A stretch of DNA of 18,899 nt from a virus. Below the pieces are notes generated by a model. That model was not told the origin of the DNA. It did not search any database and worked only from the letters and a program-made list of their open reading frames with translations. This document shows, piece by piece, positions 2,923 through 18,899 of this stretch; position 1 is the stretch's first letter; each line of letters starts with the position of its first letter. The DNA is taken from IMG/VR virus record IMGVR_UViG_3300045988_024633; one strand, 5' to 3'. A program made the position numbers and the translations under genes.

Positions 2923-4146
2923 TTAGAACGCGGGCGGATTAGATTTTCCATCCCAAACCGACAACAACGAGTACGCTTGGTTGTATCGTGTCGTGTACGG
3001 GCCGAACGGAAACGTGCTTAGAATGTTGGTTTTGAGTTGTGCGAGGTTCGACGCTTTCGGCACTTTCAGCGCGTTGGCGGGCGACTGGTGATATGCCGTC
3101 ACCCACAAAATTTGCATCTTGGTATCACTATATTCTTTCGGATAACCTGTGTAATCCTCCGCGAACTGCTTGCGTTGCCCGTCGCGCGACTCACTGCGTC
3201 CTGCCCACGTGCGGAACGCGGCCGCTTCCGCTGAGGTGAGCGAACGTTTGAATGTGCCGCCTGACTCCATGAGTGCCGCGATCTCAGGCGCGGCGGCCTT
3301 GAACGTTGCGTATCCGGCTGAGTCAGCGGCTTTCATGGCGTTGAGCACTTGCAAGCGCCGTTCGAAACTCCATTGCGCGATACCGATGCCTTGGAGGTTG
3401 GCGGCTTCTACCGCATCCCAGCGTAGACCCGCCTCAACCGTGCCGACTACATAGAGGGCGTACGAGTTCTCCGCCGACAAAGATACAGATGGGTGCGCTT
3501 GCCCGCTGTCGCTGGACGGTTGCGATTGTGACGCCTTTTCGAAAAAATTATTGGCGGTTGTTTTGTAAAAGATGCGCGTCCGTGTTCCGGCATTATCGCT
3601 TTCGTGCAGGTAGAGGTTGTCGCCTTGCCAATGTATCCACGCGCCACCACGTGCAGAGTCGGCGGAACCGTGACTATTGTCTCCGGTCGGGTTCTTCTCG
3701 GTCGGAGTCGTGCCACCCCCCTCGCCTAGTGCTTTGGGGTGCAAATAGCCTAAAAATGCCGTCAAGTCGAAACTCATGCGCTGTGCGGGGTTAGGGTTTT
3801 GTGACAATACGGTTATGCGTCCGTTATGCACGCCGTCCTCCATGACGATGGAGACATGAGAGCCGGTGTGTTGGCTTGAGAAATTCCAAAACGCCACATC
3901 CCCTTTTACGGGGCTGTAGTCGGCGGGTTTCTTCTCGAAAATCTGCGCCATCTTCGCGTTGGTCGGGAAACGTGTGTAGTTCCCTTCCGCGTATCCTGTT
4001 GGCGTGATGCAATCGCTTACAGACGCTCCGTACAAGTCCATGCAATATTTGGCCCACAAGTCCCAACACTGTGCCCCGTATGCACCATCCATGTCCCAAT
4101 ACCGGCCCTGCGTCTGCCTAATCCAATCATCAAAAGTAATAGCCAT
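2923..4146 (-). CDS. Tail-associated peptidoglycan hydrolase (functional analogue of phi29 gp13): N-terminal CHAP, Gly/Thr-rich linker, C-terminal lysozyme-like domain; 407 aa
   Basis: The N-terminus DGAYGAQCWDLW...GDVAFW...HVSIV...LSQNPN is paralogous to the endolysin CHAP. The C-terminal VEAG...GIGIAQWSFERR resembles phage tail lysozyme / transglycosylase-like domains, a weaker call. Its position in the tail module fits. Confidence 0.75.
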   Translation of the reverse strand: MAITFDDWIRQTQGRYWDMDGAYGAQCWDLWAKYCMDLYGASVSDCITPTGYAEGNYTRFPTNAKMAQIFEKKPADYSPVKGDVAFWNFSSQHTGSHVSIVMEDGVHNGRITVLSQNPNPAQRMSFDLTAFLGYLHPKALGEGGGTTPTEKNPTGDNSHGSADSARGGAWIHWQGDNLYLHESDNAGTRTRIFYKTTANNFFEKASQSQPSSDSGQAHPSVSLSAENSYALYVVGTVEAGLRWDAVEAANLQGIGIAQWSFERRLQVLNAMKAADSAGYATFKAAAPEIAALMESGGTFKRSLTSAEAAAFRTWAGRSESRDGQRKQFAEDYTGYPKEYSDTKMQILWVTAYHQSPANALKVPKASNLAQLKTNILSTFPFGPYTTRYNQAYSLLSVWDGKSNPPAF

Positions 4147-4180: not shown

Positions 4181-5626
4181 TTAGTGGAAGCAGCTCATAG
4201 AGAAGTCAAAATCGAGATATCCCGCCCCGCCTTCACCTTGCAGCATGTCAATGACGCTGAACGATTGGCCGTCGAACTTGATTTTCACATACGCTTCGTT
4301 GGACTCCTTGACTCCAAAGATTGGTATCCAATTACCAAACCTGCTAGTTGAGTTGACAGTAGCGAACGCGCTGGTATTCCATGCGGTCTTGTTGCCACGG
4401 AATTGAAAATGCACGTTCAAGCCGTCGATGAATACGCCTAGCGAACCGTCCGTCACACCGGATAACGTGACGTTGGTGTAACGCTCGATTCGTTTCGCGC
4501 GTCCGGTTTTGATACCGAGCGCGACATATTGAGCATACGTTTCCGAGCCTTGCGTATTAGGGTGGATATCGGTCATACCGCTCCCCCAAAACAGGCCCCA
4601 CGATGGGGCGTCATATACGACTTTCACGGCTGCGTGGCGTCCGCCTTCGGTCATAACACCATACTTTTGAGCTTGGTCGTAACTTAGCCAAGAATTATCC
4701 CACATCATCGGAATTTGTACGATTTCAGCGTTTGGGAACAATGTTTTGGCAGTGGTGAGCGTGTCGTACACAATGGACTCTGTCACTGCGGATACGGAGT
4801 CGTTGCGGCCACCGCCGATAACTACATATCTCACGGCATTTTTGCTTGCGCCGAGTTCCGCGCTTGCTTGCTGAATCTGCTGTTTGAACGTTTTGCCTTT
4901 CGTGCCGCCAATCGTGTAACCTGAGCCACCAACGGCATAATTCCGGCATTTGAGTCCAAGCAGTCCGGCCGCCTTGACGATCATACTGTCCGTTGCCGGA
5001 TTATCGGTGCGGAAGCCCTCGAAATACGAGTCGCCAATACCCACTAAAAGGGTCTGTTCAACGGGTTTGAGCGCATACTTGCCGTCCGACTCCAATTTGG
5101 TGTAAGTATTGTCCCAGCGGGCTTTTTTGGCTGCCGCATTGTTCACATTGTCAGCGCCAAGTGCGGCGAGTATCGCATTGTTGTTGTTGGCCTTGCCATT
5201 GGCGGTGTCTGCCTTGCTGATCGCGGACGTGGCGTCCGTACTTGCTTTATCCCACTTTGCTTTACTTGCCGTCGCGTGCGCGGTGGTGTCCGCGCCCAGC
5301 GCGGTGAGGATACTACCGTGGGAGGTTGCCTTTTCGGTTGCAGCGGCGGCGCCAGCCATTGCTTTGATGGCGTCCGTACTCGCTTTATCCCACTTGGTTT
5401 TCGCGGTGGTTGCATTGCCTACCGTGTTATCTCCAAGCAGCGCCTTGACCACTTCTTCATCGTGCGTTTCATGCGACTCTACGGCTTCGATGCGATTGAG
5501 ATGCGTTTCGAGTGTAGCGTCAATGGTGCGCATGGAACCGTTGTAGCCGTCCCTCAGGTCTGCGGGGTCATTGTCGCCGTACAAATTCAGGCCGTAATTA
5601 TCGGTTTTGGTGTATACAGTAGCCAT
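4181..5626 (-). CDS. Tail fibre / appendage protein with SGNH (GDSL) esterase domain, 481 aa
   Basis: The N-terminus carries the fibre module YGLNLYGDNDPADLRDGYNGSMRTIDATL. It is followed by three ~46-aa Ala-rich repeats (..LGAD....A.K.KWDKASTDA). The SGNH blocks are GIGDSYFEG (I), VGGSGY (II), GGGRNDS (III) and TDIHPN (V-like). A C-terminal beta-rich domain follows. Confidence 0.75.
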   Translation of the reverse strand: MATVYTKTDNYGLNLYGDNDPADLRDGYNGSMRTIDATLETHLNRIEAVESHETHDEEVVKALLGDNTVGNATTAKTKWDKASTDAIKAMAGAAAATEKATSHGSILTALGADTTAHATASKAKWDKASTDATSAISKADTANGKANNNNAILAALGADNVNNAAAKKARWDNTYTKLESDGKYALKPVEQTLLVGIGDSYFEGFRTDNPATDSMIVKAAGLLGLKCRNYAVGGSGYTIGGTKGKTFKQQIQQASAELGASKNAVRYVVIGGGRNDSVSAVTESIVYDTLTTAKTLFPNAEIVQIPMMWDNSWLSYDQAQKYGVMTEGGRHAAVKVVYDAPSWGLFWGSGMTDIHPNTQGSETYAQYVALGIKTGRAKRIERYTNVTLSGVTDGSLGVFIDGLNVHFQFRGNKTAWNTSAFATVNSTSRFGNWIPIFGVKESNEAYVKIKFDGQSFSVIDMLQGEGGAGYLDFDFSMSCFH

Positions 5627-5630
5627 TTTG

Positions 5631-5813
5631 TCAATCCCTCTCTCGAATTTGAGTTTGCAATTGGGTGAGAATCTGGTCGATCATGCGCATGGAGTGATTG
5701 TAGCCGTCGCGCATGTCCATTGGTGTCGCGTCATTGTAGAGCGGTAATCCCCAGTGTCGCGTCACGTCGTATGCTGCGTGATCTACGGGCGTGGTCTGCT
5801 GACTGTCTGCCAT
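5631..5813 (-). CDS. Short fibre-N-terminal-module protein, 60 aa
   Basis: It contains WGLPLYNDATPMDMRDGYNHSMRMIDQIL, paralogous to the N-termini of the two flanking genes. I set the start to ATG 5813, with GGAGA 9 nt upstream; the track start at 5822 is a TTG. Confidence 0.55.
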   Translation of the reverse strand: MADSQQTTPVDHAAYDVTRHWGLPLYNDATPMDMRDGYNHSMRMIDQILTQLQTQIRERD

Positions 5814-5818
5814 GACTA

Positions 5819-6172
5819 TCAATCTCCGGACGATGTGGTGGATACGAACGGAAGCCCTTCCGCCGTGACCTTGGTGTCGGTAAGGTTTTTGACGGTGTAC
5901 TTTCCGCCACCGGACGCGGGAGTGCGGTTTAGGAAGTGGTTGAGGGCGGTGCCGAGCGCTGCGGCGTTCGATGCGCTCAAGCCGAGAGCTGTGGTGAACG
6001 CTTTCAGACCTTCCGGCAGCGATTCTGGTGTTGGAATTGCGTCAATCCTGTCCGACTGCGTTTTCAGCGTCGTGTCAAGAATGTCCATCGAACGGTTGTA
6101 CGCGCCTTGGAGGTTTGGCGCGTCCGTCGCGTCGTATTTTTCGAGATTATAGTTTTGTGTTTTGCTGGTCAT
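5819..6172 (-). CDS. Short fibre-like protein with the same N-terminal module, 117 aa
   Basis: The N-terminus NYNLEKYDATDAPNLQGAYNRSMDILDTTL shares the module. The SD AGGAAGGA lies 9 nt before the ATG. Confidence 0.65.
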   Translation of the reverse strand: MTSKTQNYNLEKYDATDAPNLQGAYNRSMDILDTTLKTQSDRIDAIPTPESLPEGLKAFTTALGLSASNAAALGTALNHFLNRTPASGGGKYTVKNLTDTKVTAEGLPFVSTTSSGD

Positions 6173-6190
6173 TTGCCGTAATCCTTCCTA

Positions 6191-6790
6191 TTATTTTGCG
6201 GTTTTTATAAAATTGTTTACCACAATGCCGTTGGAGAGGTTTTCAACCGTCAATGGATCGACGGTTTCGCCGTCATCAACATGTACGTCGCGTGGCGTGA
6301 TGCGTGGCTCGTCATTGTGAAAAATGGTTTTGTTGCCGAGCACTGCGAACTCAAGGCACGTGTACGCGGCGGCCATTGGCGTGGATAGTTGTGCCATTTG
6401 GTTGATGCGCGCGCCGAACACTGCCAATTCTCGATACATGTCGCGGTTTGTGTTTTTCGAGTCTTCATACTTGCCACGGGTCGGATTGTAGGTTAAGGCA
6501 GAGTCTTCGTATTGTCCGACTTGCTTTTCCAAATCATCCAAGGTTTTATTGATGCGCTCGAACTGTTCGCTGTAACCGGCTATCAGCTGCTTGATGGCTT
6601 CGACGTCCGCGTTCTCGTCCTTTGCGAGATTGTCCAACTGTTCGCGCAATTCGTTAACATGTTCGGCCACCTCCTGCACGTAACCGAGCACTGTCAACGT
6701 GTCGCGGTACGAGAACGGCTGAACTGTAGTGAAATACCTTTGTCGCGGGTCAATGTCGAGCGGCGCGGCGCACATGTTTAGTCCGTCCAT
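6191..6790 (-). CDS. Tail/collar-associated coiled-coil protein, unknown function (199 aa from ATG 6790; 207 aa if TTG 6814)
   Basis: A central heptad-like acidic segment (EHVNELREQLDNLAKDE...LDDLEKQV) is present. It lies between the collar and fibre genes. GGAGGA sits directly upstream of ATG 6790, and no SD precedes TTG 6814. Confidence 0.6.
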   Translation of the reverse strand: MDGLNMCAAPLDIDPRQRYFTTVQPFSYRDTLTVLGYVQEVAEHVNELREQLDNLAKDENADVEAIKQLIAGYSEQFERINKTLDDLEKQVGQYEDSALTYNPTRGKYEDSKNTNRDMYRELAVFGARINQMAQLSTPMAAAYTCLEFAVLGNKTIFHNDEPRITPRDVHVDDGETVDPLTVENLSNGIVVNNFIKTAK

Positions 6791-13180: not shown

Positions 13181-13189
13181 ATTATAGCA
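13181..13189 (-). promoter_or_regulatory. Extended -10 promoter TGCTATAAT overlapping the DNAP stop codon
   Basis: This perfect TGnTATAAT is the identical 9-mer to the element at 15696..15704. Confidence 0.5.
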
Positions 13190-14636
13190 TGACCATTGTG
13201 CCGTAATCATCCATGACTTGCGTTCCATGTCTAAACCTCTCGTACGGTATAGGCTCCGTAAACATGTTGCCCGCCATGCAGACATCCACTTCACCGTCAT
13301 CCCGCCATCCCTCATAACGGTTCATTCCGAGGATAGTCAGTTTTTCGTATCGTGCGGCGATTTTCCATTTGCCGAGTTCGGTTGGATGGATGTCACATGA
13401 TTTCACCGACCCCCAACCACTCAGAATGCAGCCGTCCGTGTTCGCGTACAGCAGTCTATCGGCGTTCGCATGACAGACGTCCATAAGCTTGCGACGGGCG
13501 TAGGCGTTGACCCACACGGGCACGGACAGATAGTCGGTTTTCAGATTCGATTCTTCACGTTGCGCTATATCCCAGTCCAAGGTTATGCCGTCTTTGGAGA
13601 AGGGGAGCATGACGGCGCCTTTTGGCAGACTCGCCATCTTGCCGACTAGGGCGTTCATAATGAGTTTCGCCATTTGCCGTTTCTCACCAGTCGCCTTCTG
13701 CTTCAAGTCCCCCCATTCGTCGATAAACGAACGGAAAAAACCCTTGGAGCGGCGGAATTTCCACCCCCTAACATACTTGTAGACACTCACTTCATAATTC
13801 TCGTAAAGCAATTCTTGGTCGATGTCGGTCAAGACGCGCGTGACGTATCCGCGTGTTGAGGTGAGTCGGTTGAGTCCGTACACGCTGCGGTTGTCGAGCA
13901 GAAAGGGGTATCCGTCCGGTTTGAGTTCCGCGCGAAACGTGATTTCATCGCAATGCAACGGCATATCGCCATCTTCCTCGTACTTGCCTTCGTATGGTTC
14001 CGGTTTCCACCAAGGCAGCCACTCGTCTCGTAATATGGATGGGTACATGGAATTGCAGTCAACGTCGATAGCCTTGCCATACGCCCCTTCTTTGGTTAGC
14101 ATGAAACCGCCGATATATGCGTCATGCAATGACTTTTTCGTATCCGAGTCGAGTTGTGGAAATTTGTCGTAATACCATTTCCACTCGCCGGATGCGAAAG
14201 CCTCCATACTCGCCCCGCCCGCCGTTATCTTGCACAAACCGCGATTATCGTATTCTCTCAAGATGTTGAGCAATTGTGTGTCGGTCATGGTGATACGGCA
14301 GTTCTCACGTAAAAGATTCGATATATCGAAGAATCGTGCGGAATTTTCGCGGTCGATACGCACCGTGAAGCTGAAGAACTTGCCTTTTTTCGACACTATC
14401 GCGTCCCAACTCAGATCAGAGTTGTGTTCGTTGTGAGGGAGGGAGTGTACGACATGCGCCATGAATGGGTTTAAAATGTCTGGATTAGCCACATAAATTG
14501 TGAGTTTGCCGCCTGACATGATGGACGCCAAAAGGCGATTAGGCGCGGTGACGTCACGCAGGATGGTTCCGTCCGTGAAGCGTATGACGTTATCCGCGCA
14601 CCATAATCCCACTCTTTTATCTTGCTGCATGGTCAT
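13182..14636 (-). CDS. Protein-primed family-B DNA polymerase (phi29 gp2-like), 484 aa
   Basis: Motif A is DVDCNSMYPS, motif B is QMAKLIMNALVGKMAS and motif C is RLLYANTDGCILSG. Long collinear similarity to my recollection of phi29 DNAP includes KFPQLDSDTKKSLHDAYIGGF vs KVFPTLSLGLDKEVRYAYRGGF, PLHCDEITFRAELK vs PLHIQHIRCEFELK and FFRSFIDEWG vs LFKDFIDKWT. A TPR2-like insert is present. The SD is AAGGGAAG. Confidence 0.92.
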   Translation of the reverse strand: MTMQQDKRVGLWCADNVIRFTDGTILRDVTAPNRLLASIMSGGKLTIYVANPDILNPFMAHVVHSLPHNEHNSDLSWDAIVSKKGKFFSFTVRIDRENSARFFDISNLLRENCRITMTDTQLLNILREYDNRGLCKITAGGASMEAFASGEWKWYYDKFPQLDSDTKKSLHDAYIGGFMLTKEGAYGKAIDVDCNSMYPSILRDEWLPWWKPEPYEGKYEEDGDMPLHCDEITFRAELKPDGYPFLLDNRSVYGLNRLTSTRGYVTRVLTDIDQELLYENYEVSVYKYVRGWKFRRSKGFFRSFIDEWGDLKQKATGEKRQMAKLIMNALVGKMASLPKGAVMLPFSKDGITLDWDIAQREESNLKTDYLSVPVWVNAYARRKLMDVCHANADRLLYANTDGCILSGWGSVKSCDIHPTELGKWKIAARYEKLTILGMNRYEGWRDDGEVDVCMAGNMFTEPIPYERFRHGTQVMDDYGTMVML

Positions 14637-14664: not shown

Positions 14665-15627
14665 CTACTGTTCCAGTGCGCCCGCTTCCGTCAACCACCG
14701 ATCAAACTGCTTGCGGGAACGCTGATAACCCTTGCTGTTATCCCGAAAAACCGAAGTGAAACCGTGGCGAACTGGGTCATACACCGTCCAGTCGAACACG
14801 ATTCGTGGTGCGTCCGTCTGTTCGATAAACGCGCGTTTTTGCGCTGCCGACAATTGACGGAATCGTTTCAGTCGTTTCGAGCCAAGCGTGGTGGCTAGAA
14901 TCTTCTCGAACACCTCGTACCGTCCGCGTGACATATAAGACGGCCATTCATGCTCGCCATACAAGTCTTTACCCTGTTTGCCGCCCCCCCGCTTTTTGGA
15001 CGGTTTGCGTTTCTGTTCGGTACGCAAGCCCAATATTTCGGCGGCGTCATGCATCTGCTCAAGCAGTTCGTTACGGTGTCCGCTTTCCAATTGGGAGCGA
15101 ACGAACGCCTCATCACTTAACACGTTGGTCATTTGCAGAAAATCGGTGAGCTTTGAAGGAATGATTTGATTACGTCCGAAACTTTCGCCGGTGGTTCCGG
15201 TGATTTCGGCCACGCGCTGTTCGTACACGCTTTTCGCAGGCATGGCCTGAGCTTTGTTCCATTCGTTGATTTTACGTCGTGCCGCATTGATTTTCCGCTG
15301 CTGCTGCCGCAATAGTTTGCGTCGTTTCGCCACCGGCTCCGCGTCGATCTGCGCGTTGGTGATGGGCGTGCGCTGGGCGAACATGATGTCTTTTTTCGTC
15401 GGTTTCTCGACTGCGGTGGCGTGATATGGGGTTGCTTTCGCTTCCGCTATGACCTGTTTCTTCTGCCGATCCCACTCCTTGCCTAGCGTTTTTGCGATGT
15501 TGACTAGTTGTTTGTCCGCGGTTTTGGCGAGGTTCGAGTGTGAGTATGAGCCAAGCTGTTTGATGTTGCGTGCGGCACGTGCTTGCGCGGCCTGACGTGC
15601 CTTGACATGCTTTTGCTTTCGAGGCAT
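14665..15627 (-). CDS. Putative terminal protein (replication primer), 320 aa
   Basis: It lies immediately upstream of the DNAP as phi29 gene 3 does. The protein is very basic and K/R/Q-rich. I saw no clear sequence similarity to phi29 TP, so the call rests on position and composition. I set the start to ATG 15627, with AAGGA 9 nt upstream. Confidence 0.55.
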   Translation of the reverse strand: MPRKQKHVKARQAAQARAARNIKQLGSYSHSNLAKTADKQLVNIAKTLGKEWDRQKKQVIAEAKATPYHATAVEKPTKKDIMFAQRTPITNAQIDAEPVAKRRKLLRQQQRKINAARRKINEWNKAQAMPAKSVYEQRVAEITGTTGESFGRNQIIPSKLTDFLQMTNVLSDEAFVRSQLESGHRNELLEQMHDAAEILGLRTEQKRKPSKKRGGGKQGKDLYGEHEWPSYMSRGRYEVFEKILATTLGSKRLKRFRQLSAAQKRAFIEQTDAPRIVFDWTVYDPVRHGFTSVFRDNSKGYQRSRKQFDRWLTEAGALEQ

Positions 15628-15649
15628 ATGGCACAATCCTTAAGATGGC

Positions 15650-15710: not shown

Positions 15711-16145
15711 TCACTTGGTTTCCTCGTCCACCGGCTCAATGCTGAAAAACTTGAATCCACGACGGGAGCGGCGTTCCACCACCTTGATGCACAACGGTTC
15801 AGTCCAAGTGTTCGGCGCGCCGAAGATACCGAACATGGTGTTCAGTCCCGCGGCGAGAGTCGGGGAGGTGGCCGCGTACGCCTTGTTGTCGTCGGTCACG
15901 ATGATGACGCGCACGGTGTTGGAGATTTCTCCCGTCTGGTCGTCTGTCACCTGCACGGCCTGAGCGACTGCGTTCGTCATGTTCAACGGCTCGTTAAGAT
16001 GTTCTTCGAGCTTTTCGGCGTTCTGCAATGCGCTGTAAAGCTTGATCTTGCCTTCGCGCGTCGAGGTGTCGATGAAGTGCTGGACGGTGCCGAGTTCGGT
16101 GTTTTCGGTGTCGAATGCGACGAGTGCGGTATTGTTGTTTCCCAT
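15711..16145 (-). CDS. Single-stranded DNA-binding protein (phi29 p5-like), 144 aa
   Basis: By-eye similarity to my recollection of p5 includes N-terminal ALVAFDTENTELG vs VKATFDTETLEG, central NAVAQAVQVTDD vs NAIAQYKQVSD, and C-terminal IKVVERRSRRGFKFFSIE vs VKVVQGTSSKGNVFFSLQ. Its position matches phi29 gene 5. Confidence 0.6.
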   Translation of the reverse strand: MGNNNTALVAFDTENTELGTVQHFIDTSTREGKIKLYSALQNAEKLEEHLNEPLNMTNAVAQAVQVTDDQTGEISNTVRVIIVTDDNKAYAATSPTLAAGLNTMFGIFGAPNTWTEPLCIKVVERRSRRGFKFFSIEPVDEETK

Positions 16146-16528: not shown

Positions 16529-17047
16529 TTACCTCCCTTGCAGTAAGATTTTTTCTAAATCACCATCAGTATAACGAGTCGTGTCCAGTCTGTCAAAATT
16601 TTTAAACACGGCGATAATCAAGTTTTGCGCTTGCGGGTTGTCGAAAATCGTGCAACAGTCATACGACGTGCCGCCCTTGACCGCACACACCGCACACCAT
16701 GCAATCAGGTTAGGCGGATTGATGGAGCCGTCCAAATATTCCACGTCATACGTTCGAGATAGTGCGGCGGCGAGTCCGTCCCACATGGTCAGACTGCCGC
16801 AAATCTGTGACACCATGACAACCGCTTGCGTAAACCATGCGCTAGGCGCGTCACGCCATAGTTCGCATAGCATGTTCACGGCACGGCAGCACGTTTCAAA
16901 ATCGCCAAAACCCATGTCAAACCGCTTCAAGTTCAACTCACGCTTATGGCCTTTTGTGGCGCGGACAATACGTTTGCTTTCCATGATCGCATCATCGAAG
17001 TCACGCATGCGACGGATAGGACGCCTATCGTCGCCACGCCTAAACAT
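16529..17047 (-). CDS. Early protein, unknown function, 172 aa (Cys-rich)
   Basis: The ORF has GAGGAA 7 nt upstream of its ATG and is tightly packed in the early operon. I recognised no motif. Confidence 0.7.
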   Translation of the reverse strand: MFRRGDDRRPIRRMRDFDDAIMESKRIVRATKGHKRELNLKRFDMGFGDFETCCRAVNMLCELWRDAPSAWFTQAVVMVSQICGSLTMWDGLAAALSRTYDVEYLDGSINPPNLIAWCAVCAVKGGTSYDCCTIFDNPQAQNLIIAVFKNFDRLDTTRYTDGDLEKILLQGR

Positions 17048-17671: not shown

Positions 17672-17944
17672 TCAGGCCCCTTTCACAACGAAAACCAACA
17701 CAATAGCCACGCTCACAGTAAGCATGACCAAAAAGCAAAAAACGTCACGCGCATTGCGCGGGAGTTCGCAAAACACCATAGCCGCCATCGTGAGAAACAG
17801 CACGGAAAGAATGCAGATGGCAACAATCATGCCAACCATTATAACATCACCACCTATCAGACTAAAACACTCAAACCATGCCAAAAACGACAACAACACC
17901 AATAACACACGCACAAATAACAAGAACAGAAACAAACATATCAA
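17672..17944 (-). CDS. Small early membrane protein (90 aa from TTG 17944; 55 aa if ATG 17839)
   Basis: The protein is extremely hydrophobic, with 2-3 TM segments. The TTG start overlaps the upstream stop (TTGA). The alternative ATG at 17839 has GGTGGTGA 7 nt upstream. Confidence 0.55.
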   Translation of the reverse strand: MICLFLFLLFVRVLLVLLSFLAWFECFSLIGGDVIMVGMIVAICILSVLFLTMAAMVFCELPRNARDVFCFLVMLTVSVAIVLVFVVKGA

Positions 17945-18174
17945 TACACCACACTATAAAAATAAGCCATATATTCACCCCCGACGACACGCCTTGGCGG
18001 GAACTGGCTAACACGAGCGTAAAGCATGACTCCCTCAAGCTGGAGGACCCTACACAAAGCCTCATAAGAGTCTTTGGCGTGAACTACACGGTAATTACGA
18101 GTCGGAGCTTCCACTTGGAGATAATCAACACAAGACCAATCAACTACGATATACGTATGCTCTCTCACAATCAT
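17941..18174 (-). CDS. Early protein, 77 aa, paralog 1 of a tandem pair
   Basis: The SD is AGGAAGGGTGA. It is about 60% identical to the product of 18250..18483. Confidence 0.7.
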   Translation of the reverse strand: MIVREHTYIVVDWSCVDYLQVEAPTRNYRVVHAKDSYEALCRVLQLEGVMLYARVSQFPPRRVVGGEYMAYFYSVVY

Positions 18175-18249: not shown

Positions 18250-18483
18250 TCAATACACCACCTTGTAACAATAAGACACATATCCGCTTGCAACGTTATG
18301 TTCGGAAGAAAGCAGGTTAACGTGAGCGTAAAATATGACTCCTTCAATCTGAAGAACTCTACGCAAAGCTTCATAAGAGTCTTTGGCATGGACTACACGG
18401 TAACTACGAGTCGGCGCTTCCACTTGGAGATAGTCACGACCATTCCACTCAACAATGATATACGTATACCCTCTCACAATCAT
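18250..18483 (-). CDS. Early protein, 77 aa, paralog 2 of a tandem pair
   Basis: I set the start to ATG 18483, preceded by GGAAGGGAGA. This gives the same length and N-terminus (MIVR..TYI) as paralog 1. The 27-aa N-terminal extension in the track has no SD. Confidence 0.7.
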   Translation of the reverse strand: MIVRGYTYIIVEWNGRDYLQVEAPTRSYRVVHAKDSYEALRRVLQIEGVIFYAHVNLLSSEHNVASGYVSYCYKVVY

Positions 18484-18496
18484 TCTCCCTTCCTGC

Positions 18497-18697
18497 TCAC
18501 GCTTCCTCGAACGCTTCCGTAAAATCATCGGCCGGAAACGAATCACAATCATCATATTTCTCAATGGTCATATCATTGACCAAAGACACATGATGCAGAT
18601 TCTCGACAATCGCGTCAACATCAAAATCATCAATAAACTGGTCGCTGTTCAGAATGTAGTCCTCAACGTAATCCTTGATAATCTTATCGTTAATCAT
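18497..18697 (-). CDS. Highly acidic early protein, 66 aa (candidate DNA mimic / anti-defence)
   Basis: It is the first gene inside the right ITR, and its ATG and SD are part of the ITR. It has 20 D/E versus 3 K and no R. Confidence 0.75.
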   Translation of the reverse strand: MINDKIIKDYVEDYILNSDQFIDDFDVDAIVENLHHVSLVNDMTIEKYDDCDSFPADDFTEAFEEA

Positions 18698-18899
18698 TTT
18701 ATTTCCTTTCCCTTGAAGCTGATAACTACACTATAACACAAACAAAAACACGACACGCCCGAAAACAAAACAAAGCAAAATATTAAAAGACAACTACCGG
18801 CCGAGCAGTAAGCTACGGTTACGTTACCGTAACTTAGCGGGACATGGACTGTTGTATATACAACCATTGACACAGTGTCAATAAAAAAAACGACACGCC
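18690..18899. repeat. Right inverted terminal repeat (210 bp)
   Basis: It is the exact reverse complement of 1..210. Confidence 0.97.
18730..18738 (-). promoter_or_regulatory. Extended -10 promoter TGTTATAGT in the right ITR (mirror of 162..170)
   Basis: It is identical to the left-ITR element by ITR symmetry. Confidence 0.5.

Follow-up and report, generated by a model that had tools for sequence, protein, structure and literature searches.

We analyzed a window of 18,899 nucleotides (nt) deposited as IMG/VR virus record IMGVR_UViG_3300045988_024633, and we focused on the open reading frame (ORF) at positions 13182-14636, which was the sole DNA polymerase gene of this genome. The analysis indicated that the gene likely encodes an active protein-primed replicase of a phi29-like Bifidobacterium podophage, and that the proofreading (editing) mode of this replicase was dismantled in the course of evolution. 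The window was a complete linear phage genome of 18.9 kb belonging to the phi29-like Bifidobacterium podophage type; we considered it complete because its two ends were perfect inverted repeats. As judged from the polymerase sequences, this phage and many of its relatives in the gut probably replicate their DNA without self-correction.

The polymerase gene and its predicted fold

13182-14636, minus strand: DNA polymerase gene, 484 amino acids (aa); PF03175, 97.7 bits; phrog_1907, 1e-43; phi29 DNA polymerase (1xhx), E = 1.2e-40; AlphaFold2 model with a predicted local distance difference test (pLDDT) score of 93.9

A first-pass annotation of this ORF, made from the sequence alone, had described a protein about 90 aa shorter than phi29 DNA polymerase, with a polymerase half that aligned readily to the phi29 enzyme. 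Both descriptions were accurate. The two proteins were 484 and 575 aa in length (a difference of 91 aa), and residues 129-439 of the query matched phi29 residues 180-498 with the E value listed above. The PF03175 match, which was well over the cut-off of 25.8 bits, covered only residues 137-385, and sequence searches detected the polymerase half alone. The AlphaFold2 model was built from a 102-sequence alignment and had a predicted template modeling score (pTM) of 0.91. When the model was used in a Foldseek search, which returned global scores rather than a residue-level superposition, the top PDB matches were all phi29 DNA polymerase (2pyj_B; E = 2e-40, TMq 0.85), and the next matches were archaeal family B DNA polymerases (PolBs; E of about 1e-8).

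A ribosome-binding site, AAGGGAAG, was located upstream of the polymerase ATG, and the ORF was directly downstream of a 323-aa ORF that occupied the position of the phi29 terminal-protein gene. A longer N-terminus was ruled out by an in-frame stop codon, and the gap to the upstream gene was 28 nt. The start of the protein, MT.(Q/H)D..VGLWC, was a conserved feature of this window and of over 100 homologues. In the deposited genome of the lytic Bifidobacterium podophage BP1 (PQ571273), the polymerase coding sequence (4849-6264, 471 aa) starts 12 codons downstream of this conserved start.

A degenerate exonuclease domain

Conservation was scored in close relatives (the best 120 of 193 homologous clusters found in a collection of 5.8 billion proteins), in distant members of the same clade (n = 17), in a short-clade set (n = 22), and in canonical polymerases (n = 121). 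The features of the editing half of the protein were as follows.

14232-14636, minus strand: N-terminal domain (aa 1-135), a degenerate 3'-5' exonuclease remnant about 55 aa shorter than the phi29 domain, identified with hhalign
14565-14573, minus strand: D22-G23-T24, a possible ExoI vestige with the Glu lost, from the clade alignment (a mapping that was not statistically supported)
14460-14498, minus strand: IYVANPDILNPFM, the ExoII remnant; in global and local hhalign alignments, Asn62 is kept as N51 and Asp66 is replaced by Ile54 or Leu55
14307-14318, minus strand: N107-L-L-R110, the clade-specific residues with the strongest conservation in the remnant; they align to the D121-K125 loop region of phi29
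14268-14294, minus strand: ITMTDTQLL, the junction of a 35-residue deletion that removes Kx2h (Lys143) and ExoIII (Tyr165 and Asp169), from hhalign
13185-13271, minus strand: truncated thumb (aa 456-484), 29 aa compared to about 46 in phi29, ending just past the L567 equivalent

The exonuclease site of phi29 DNA polymerase consists of Asp12 and Glu14 (ExoI), Asp66 (ExoII), Tyr165 and Asp169 (ExoIII), and Lys143 (Kx2h) (PMC4974454). When the N-terminal domain alone was compared to 99 canonical exonuclease domains with hhalign, residues 27-140 aligned to phi29 residues 39-188 (in the numbering of the 572-aa annotated protein, which is 3 below the classical numbering) with a probability of 96.9% and an E value of 1.4e-10. 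This homology shows that the domain truly descends from the exonuclease domain and did not arise as a new one. A fold homologous to the DEDD (DnaQ-like) domain was present; the four metal-binding carboxylates were not, with D22 and D119 as vestiges at most, and the ExoIII Tyr and the Kx2h Lys were both inside the 35-residue deletion. No full set of metal ligands could be assembled under any alignment of the remnant domain.

The first-pass annotation had noted that residues 1-69 contain no glutamate, and it had assigned ExoI to WCADNV (aa 12-17). The first Glu was indeed E70 (chance p of about 0.02 at a Glu content of 5.6%), and the absence of a Glu14 equivalent stood. The mapping of the motif proved ambiguous, since residues 1-26 gave no significant profile alignment and could be placed in three ways. 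In the first, WCADNV pairs with SCDFET of phi29, which fits three short strands ahead of the first helix in the model; in the second, from the global hhalign alignment, the ExoI strand is deleted; in the third, from the clade alignment, FTD22-G-T24 pairs with SCD12-F-E14. The Glu is missing in all three mappings. The start of the BadAztec1 protein, MSCDGKT, resembles SCDFET and favors the pairing with D22-G-T24. D22 was kept in 115/120 close relatives and in 11/17 distant members, and its column read D-x-[D/E] in 8 of the 17 distant members.

At ExoII (aa 47-59), the profile-profile alignment agreed with the earlier proposal that the Asn is kept and the catalytic Asp is lost: N51 corresponded to N62, and D66 fell on I54 or L55. 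The neighboring residue, D53, was Arg in 13/120 close relatives. The earlier ExoIII alignment, like that of ExoI, was not the one with the best support. It had paired ITMTDTQLL (aa 115-123) with YIKNDIQII, so that the Asp was kept and Ile replaced Y165; the profile alignment instead had the 35-residue deletion over Kx2h and ExoIII. The proposed pairing would need a one-residue gap in a helix, and the ungapped register from the conserved G133-L134 put D119 at phi29 I170, one residue past D169.

The predicted loss of the exonuclease site was supported, and it was wider than the first-pass annotation described: Kx2h, Ser122, and the thumb ligands were also gone. The position of Ser122, a ligand of single-stranded DNA, was hydrophobic in all 22 short-clade members, and the equivalents of thumb residues K538, K555, K557, Q560, T571, T573, and K575 were deleted in the same 22 sequences. 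The roles of Ser122 and of the thumb ligands in phi29 have been described (PMC4974454; PMC1475753), and the thumb residues coordinate polymerization with editing (PMC1475753). The thumb lysines among them bring the primer end to the exonuclease site. We infer that the enzyme lacks 3'-5' exonuclease activity, and the whole editing mode, not merely one or two ligands, is predicted to be gone.

The N-terminal domain residues that were conserved clade-wide were G23, N107, and R110, and D22 and D104 were partly conserved; no acidic column of the domain was conserved across the clade. N107 was found in 119/120 close relatives and 17/17 distant members, and R110 was found in 115/120 and 13/17, respectively. 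The lone D-x-E of the domain, D95-R-E97, was rejected as a candidate motif: it was in a loop, it was gapped in distant members, and E97 was Asn in 13/120 close relatives.

Two distant members of the short clade, P0129 and P0130, retained more of the exonuclease pattern. In P0129, the ExoI-like column read DTD, ExoII read HGWSD, and the D169 register was occupied by an Asp. These two proteins may represent an intermediate stage of decay.

The polymerase active site

The motifs of the polymerase half were as follows.

14040-14066, minus strand: motif A, DVDCNSMYP, with catalytic Asp193 (phi29 D249) and Tyr198 (Y254), both invariant in 22/22 short-clade and 121/121 canonical sequences
13635-13667, minus strand: motif B, KLIMNALVGKM, with Lys324 (K383) kept, Tyr390 replaced by Val331, and Phe393 replaced by Met334
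13554-13622, minus strand: TPR2 beta-hairpin insertion (aa 339-361), aligned to phi29 398-420 by hhalign without gaps; AlphaFold2 strands at 340-346 and 354-360
13431-13448, minus strand: motif C, YANTDG, with D456 replaced by Asn399, catalytic Asp401 (D458) kept, and Ser459 replaced by Gly402
13314-13322, minus strand: KxY motif as N439-R440-Y441, with Lys498 lost and the basic residue shifted by one position

The TPR1 and TPR2 insertions were both present, as indicated by continuous hhalign alignments over phi29 261-358 and 398-420 and by a hairpin at residues 340-360 of the model. TPR2 is an element specific to protein-primed polymerases, and it underlies processivity and strand displacement. 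D193, Y198, K324, D401, and Y441 (the KxY Tyr, equivalent to Y500) were invariant in the clade and in the 121 canonical sequences.

The first-pass annotation had also reported VGKM (aa 331-334) in place of YGKF in motif B and NTD in place of DTD in motif C (YANTDG, aa 397-402), and both substitutions were real. In motif B, the K-x3-N-S-x-Y-G-K consensus was represented by K324, N328, G332, and K333, and the Tyr was replaced by V331 in 118/120 close relatives. Position 390 was V, I, T, or A in 22/22 short-clade members and Tyr in 103/121 canonical sequences. Tyr390 is the invariant motif B tyrosine and has a role in nucleotide selection (PMC1976434; PMC4974454). The KxY motif showed a comparable pattern: K498 was found in 121/121 canonical sequences versus 0/22 short-clade members, an R or K was found at the next position in most of the clade, and N439 and R440 were present in all 120 close relatives.

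In motif C, the first Asp of the Y-x-D-T-D-S consensus was missing, and N399 and G402 were found in every one of the 120 close relatives. Position 456 was D in 121/121 canonical sequences and D or N in the short clade. On a neighbor-joining tree, Asn456 occurred in a single main group and, separately, in three distant members, never together with Ser459. The catalytic carboxylates of phi29 DNA polymerase are Asp249 and Asp458 (PMC4974454), which correspond to D193 and D401, so the NTD substitution spares the catalytic pair. Active PolBs in which the first Asp of motif C is substituted have been described before. Archaeal PolB2 (Dpo2), in which the conserved Tyr and Asp of motif C are substituted, is an active polymerase without an exonuclease (PMC8764526), and members of the PolB_SITDG group have a hydrophobic residue at the position of the first Asp (PMC7544198).

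Relatives and selection

The 120 close relatives were 74-90% identical to the query and nearly all 482-484 aa in length, with three shorter sequences of 464-471 aa, and the substitutions described above were fixed or nearly fixed among them. One cluster had 1209 members, which suggested that this phage type is common in gut metagenomes. An exhaustive search of 1.84 billion cluster representatives yielded relatives of 454-496 aa that were 29-41% identical, and after these came canonical enzymes of 540-630 aa. The short forms (454-496 aa) were monophyletic on a neighbor-joining tree of the polymerase domain. Polymerase identity to the query was 86% for BP1, 75% for BD811P1-3 (like BP1, cultured lytic phages), and about 31% for BadAztec/BadAargau. 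The exonuclease-loss state extends past this gene and is the mark of an entire clade of Bifidobacterium phage polymerases. The substitutions were neither chance events nor assembly errors.

A second, separate clade of phage protein-primed PolBs (pPolBs) of about 540 aa had degenerate ExoI and ExoII motifs and a deleted ExoIII segment, with Tyr390, Asp456, and Lys498 kept. It included P0157, P0179, P0198, P0213, P0231, P0253, P0254, P0256, P0264, and P0268. No close cultured relative of this clade was found, the best match in the phage collection being 34-36% identical; the Hungatella phage CH17P1 was considered as such a relative and proved canonical. Degeneration was also seen in a few scattered individual sequences. 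Among the cultured phi29-like phages of Hungatella, Eggerthella, Actinomyces, and Curtobacterium that were checked, the polymerases were fully canonical.

The ratio of nonsynonymous to synonymous substitution rates (dN/dS) between this genome and BP1 came to 0.066 in the N-terminal domain versus 0.065 in the polymerase domain, values that are qualitative because synonymous sites were near saturation. Close relatives shared a mean identity of 80% in the N-terminal domain, compared to 85% in the polymerase domain. Purifying selection and conservation of the remnant domain together indicated that the domain is functional.

Alternative explanations

We judged it somewhat unlikely that the N-terminal domain has taken on a new main role in place of editing, such as recognition of the terminal protein or the replication origin, and is more than a passive scaffold; of the alternatives, this one survived best. 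N107 was invariant and R110 nearly so, even though the full-length identity of the clade members to the query was otherwise just 24-37%, and purifying selection on the N-terminal domain equaled that on the polymerase domain. In addition, the 323-aa candidate terminal protein had no detectable similarity to known families, and the phi29 exonuclease domain is known to touch the terminal protein through R96 (PMC4974454). However, a tunnel or scaffold role predicts the same conservation, and a new function would refine the explanation of a dismantled editing mode and is compatible with it.

Proofreading in trans, by a host 3'-5' exonuclease (e.g., of the DnaQ or PHP type) or by an unrecognized phage protein, seemed improbable. 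Seven of the 10 early ORFs searched had no detectable function, which leaves room for such a protein, but when 21 of the 26 plausible ORFs were searched against Pfam and PHROG profiles, neither an exonuclease nor a helicase family was identified in the rest of the genome. The five ORFs outside these searches comprised the capsid gene, whose name was taken from BP1, and four short ones (58-117 aa), of which 5819-6172 was searched with PHROG only. The same searches found no helicase that might compensate as in mavirus. One early phage protein contained an ExoI-like string.

16529-17047, minus strand: conserved early protein of 172 aa with GDFET (aa 48-52), which is like phi29 ExoI; its function was not recognized by fold or family search

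This protein was rejected as a trans-acting exonuclease. Its model was all-helical (pLDDT 65.7), which disagrees with the alpha/beta DEDD fold, and it had no fold match in the PDB and no sequence match. Nor was GDFET acceptable as an ExoI motif, since the DFE was not conserved and the BadAztec1 homologue read GNDIL. Furthermore, phi29 polymerase wraps around the DNA and works with high processivity (PMC4974454), and a polymerase of this type would be expected to leave other enzymes little access to the primer end.

It was more improbable still that the remnant keeps a weak or noncanonical nuclease activity by using other acidic residues, for example, D22/D104/D119 or D95-x-E97. D15, D22, D78, D95, D104, and D119 were each present in at least 115/120 close relatives, the D22 column read D-x-[D/E] in the 8 distant members noted above, and P0129, as read from the alignment, had an Asp at the positions matching D66 and D169. 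Against these observations, no acidic column was conserved clade-wide, E97 was Asn in 13/120 close relatives, and D104 aligned to D121 of phi29, a residue outside the set of metal ligands. Moreover, Tyr165 and Lys143 were deleted, Ser122 and the primer-stabilizing residues of the thumb were absent in 22/22 short-clade members, and the BadAztec-type members lacked most of the N-terminal strands.

Finally, the possibility of a pseudogene, an assembly artifact, or an inactive polymerase in a genome replicated by another enzyme, which the broken consensus at ExoI-III, the first motif C Asp, Tyr390, and Lys498 might bring to mind, was negligible: the gene was a single intact ORF with a ribosome-binding site, its length and substitutions recurred across homologous clusters (the best 120 of 193), dN/dS was about 0.065, the same form was found in cultured lytic phages, the genome had no other polymerase, and a linear genome with inverted terminal repeats requires protein priming.

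Some points weighed against an active replicase that has lost editing altogether. D22 and D119 showed good conservation within the close subclade and may be vestiges of ligands, the three mappings of residues 1-26 to ExoI were all conceivable, the dN/dS values could be read only qualitatively, and several small early ORFs had no recognizable function in profile searches. In addition, mutation of the exonuclease metal ligands of phi29 impairs strand displacement (PMC6351526); thus, a remnant that serves only as a scaffold would need compensating changes, and none were identified.

Genome ends and neighboring genes

1-210, unstranded: left inverted terminal repeat, 210 bp, perfect; exact reverse complement of 18690-18899; presumed replication origin
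18690-18899, unstranded: right inverted terminal repeat, reverse complement of 1-210
14665-15636, minus strand: candidate terminal protein, 323 aa, assigned by synteny only (between the genes for SSB [single-stranded DNA-binding protein] and polymerase, like phi29 gene 3)
15711-16145, minus strand: phi29-type SSB; PF17427, 1.3e-16; phrog_6243, 1.5e-19
1-10, 141-150, and, on the minus strand, 17984-17993, 18750-18759, and 18890-18899: copies of the 10-mer GGCGTGTCGT, at both extreme ends, once more in each terminal repeat, and once in the early region

The minus strand carried nearly all of the genes of the window. By DNA and protein similarity, the window grouped with the lytic Bifidobacterium podophages BP1 and BD811P1-3, and the honeybee phages BadAztec and BadAargau were further removed; the DNA was 80% identical to that of BP1 across 54% of the window. 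Profile searches identified the phi29-type packaging ATPase, upper and lower collar proteins, and SSB, as well as a tail protein, a holin, and two lysin-like genes. The small linear genome, the matches to phrog_2150, phrog_2038, phrog_3225/5472, and PF17427, and the DNA similarity to BP1 and BD811P1-3 placed the phage in the Salasmaviridae-like genome type.

The candidate terminal protein had no sequence match in Pfam, PHROG, or the PDB. Its N-terminus was very basic, and the protein showed no detectable similarity to any family or solved structure. The phi29 terminal protein is 266 aa. The terminal 10-mer was present in 5 copies, compared to 0.07 expected, and it may be an origin element or a recognition element for the terminal protein or polymerase.

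In the 172-aa early protein, Asp19, Asp90, Asp106, and Asp130 were invariant even in the 30%-identical BadAztec1 homologue. Two other early ORFs, 17941-18174 and 18250-18564 (both on the minus strand), were paralogues with 64% identity over 77 aa (E = 3e-33), which corresponds to a tandem duplication of a small gene. N-terminal domains resembling those of endolysins or CHAP amidases were found in two separate genes, 510-1211 and 2923-4146 (both on the minus strand). One of these lysin-like genes adjoined the holin gene; the other encoded a 407-aa protein beside the tail genes, which could be a virion-associated hydrolase.

Proposed mechanism and implications

Under the explanation that we prefer, an active protein-primed replicase without an editing mode, the terminal protein would prime synthesis at the 210-bp inverted terminal repeats, the polymerase would copy the 18.9-kb genome by processive, helicase-free strand displacement, and the phi29-type SSB would coat the displaced strand. 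The remnant domain would be kept as a scaffold that, with TPR2, the palm, and the fingers, closes the downstream-template tunnel needed for strand displacement without a helicase, and it may also help to dock the terminal protein. In phi29, S122 also has a role in contact with the terminal protein. The strands in phi29 are forced apart by a narrow downstream-template tunnel that the exonuclease domain, TPR2, palm, and fingers form (PMC4974454), exonuclease domain-TPR2 contacts are important for unwinding (PMC6351526), and R96 of the exonuclease domain makes contact with the terminal protein (PMC4974454). Because of these roles, the fold could remain under selection after catalysis was lost. 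The D456N, S459G, Y390V, and K498N substitutions, the last with an R at 499, may be relaxations or compensations that became possible because the primer no longer had to shuttle between two sites.

The fidelity of such an enzyme would depend on nucleotide selection alone, which in phi29 amounts to 10^4-10^6 (PMC6351526). With base selection in this range, an 18.9-kb double-stranded DNA phage would make roughly 0.02 to 2 errors per genome copy. Such a figure well exceeds the rate commonly given for DNA microbes. If replication in this lineage proceeds without any proofreading, then these phages would have an unusually high mutation rate for a double-stranded DNA virus, possibly as an adaptation to host defenses, and this rate would bear on how fast these common phages of the infant and adult gut escape host defenses.

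Polymerases of the phi29 type serve as the standard model of a self-sufficient replicase with high fidelity, and they are a workhorse of DNA amplification and single-molecule sequencing. A natural enzyme of this type that lacks editing and still displaces strands would show how the two functions can be uncoupled, and an exonuclease-free, strand-displacing enzyme could be a useful reagent. The recurrent loss in two phage clades, together with recurrent D456N only in the clade without Lys498, suggests a testable epistasis around the polymerase active site. We propose more tentatively, and with appreciable doubt, that a globally abundant lineage of Bifidobacterium tailed phages replicates double-stranded DNA without any proofreading, and that its re-engineered replicase, with a tunnel-scaffold remnant, a truncated thumb, and the NTDG, Val390, and NRY changes, still carries out helicase-free, protein-primed strand displacement.

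We found no report of exonuclease loss in phi29-like tailed phages in the literature, including the BP1 papers and a 2024 review of phi29-like phages, although journal coverage was incomplete; what turned up was general reviews together with the precedents of mavirus and polinton-like viruses and of PolB2. The papers found on phages BP1, BD811P1-3, and BadAztec/BadAargau contained no comment on the exonuclease.

Comparison with known systems

The closest well-characterized system is phi29, with the DNA polymerase gp2 (1XHX, 2PYJ, and 2EX3). The two enzymes share their fold (TMq 0.85), the palm, fingers, TPR1, and TPR2 architecture, and the two catalytic carboxylates, and the two genomes share an SSB gene, a gene at the terminal-protein position, the polymerase gene, inverted terminal repeats, a packaging ATPase, and collar proteins. 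In contrast to the phi29 enzyme, the polymerase described here is 91 aa shorter and lacks the ExoI Glu, ExoII Asp, Kx2h Lys, and ExoIII Tyr and Asp. It also has a hydrophobic residue at Ser122, a thumb without K538, K555, K557, Q560, T571, T573, and K575, and replacements of Y390 by Val, D456 by Asn, S459 by Gly, and K498 by Asn. The genomes differ in the inverted terminal repeat, which is 210 bp here and 6 bp in phi29.

The polymerases of BP1, BD811P1-3, and BadAztec/BadAargau belong to the same clade, have the same short form, and likewise lack the exonuclease residues, Tyr390, and Lys498. The BadAztec-type polymerase of honeybee phages differs in that it keeps DTDS in motif C and has lost still more of the N-terminal strands.

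The engineered phi29 D12A/D66A polymerase is also a protein-primed enzyme without proofreading, but it keeps the whole domain and is defective in strand displacement (PMC6351526). The natural enzyme, in contrast, should still have to displace strands, since no helicase was found in the genome by profile searches.

Exonuclease loss itself is already known in other PolBs, namely, Pol alpha, Pol zeta, PolB2, and the pPolBs of the mavirus and polinton-like types. The pPolBs of mavirus-type virophages and polinton-like viruses are protein primed and have lost the exonuclease domain (PMC11161782). They differ from the enzyme described here in that they belong to eukaryotic viruses, the domain has been mostly deleted or replaced, and a helicase has been gained, whereas this phage has a folded remnant and no helicase was found in its genome. 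Archaeal PolB2 (Dpo2), Pol alpha, and Pol zeta are likewise family B enzymes in which the exonuclease motifs are inactivated or missing. Dpo2 and Pol zeta act in lesion bypass. Unlike the polymerase of this phage, PolB2, Pol alpha, and Pol zeta are RNA or DNA primed, have no TPR1 or TPR2, and are not the sole replicases of their genomes.

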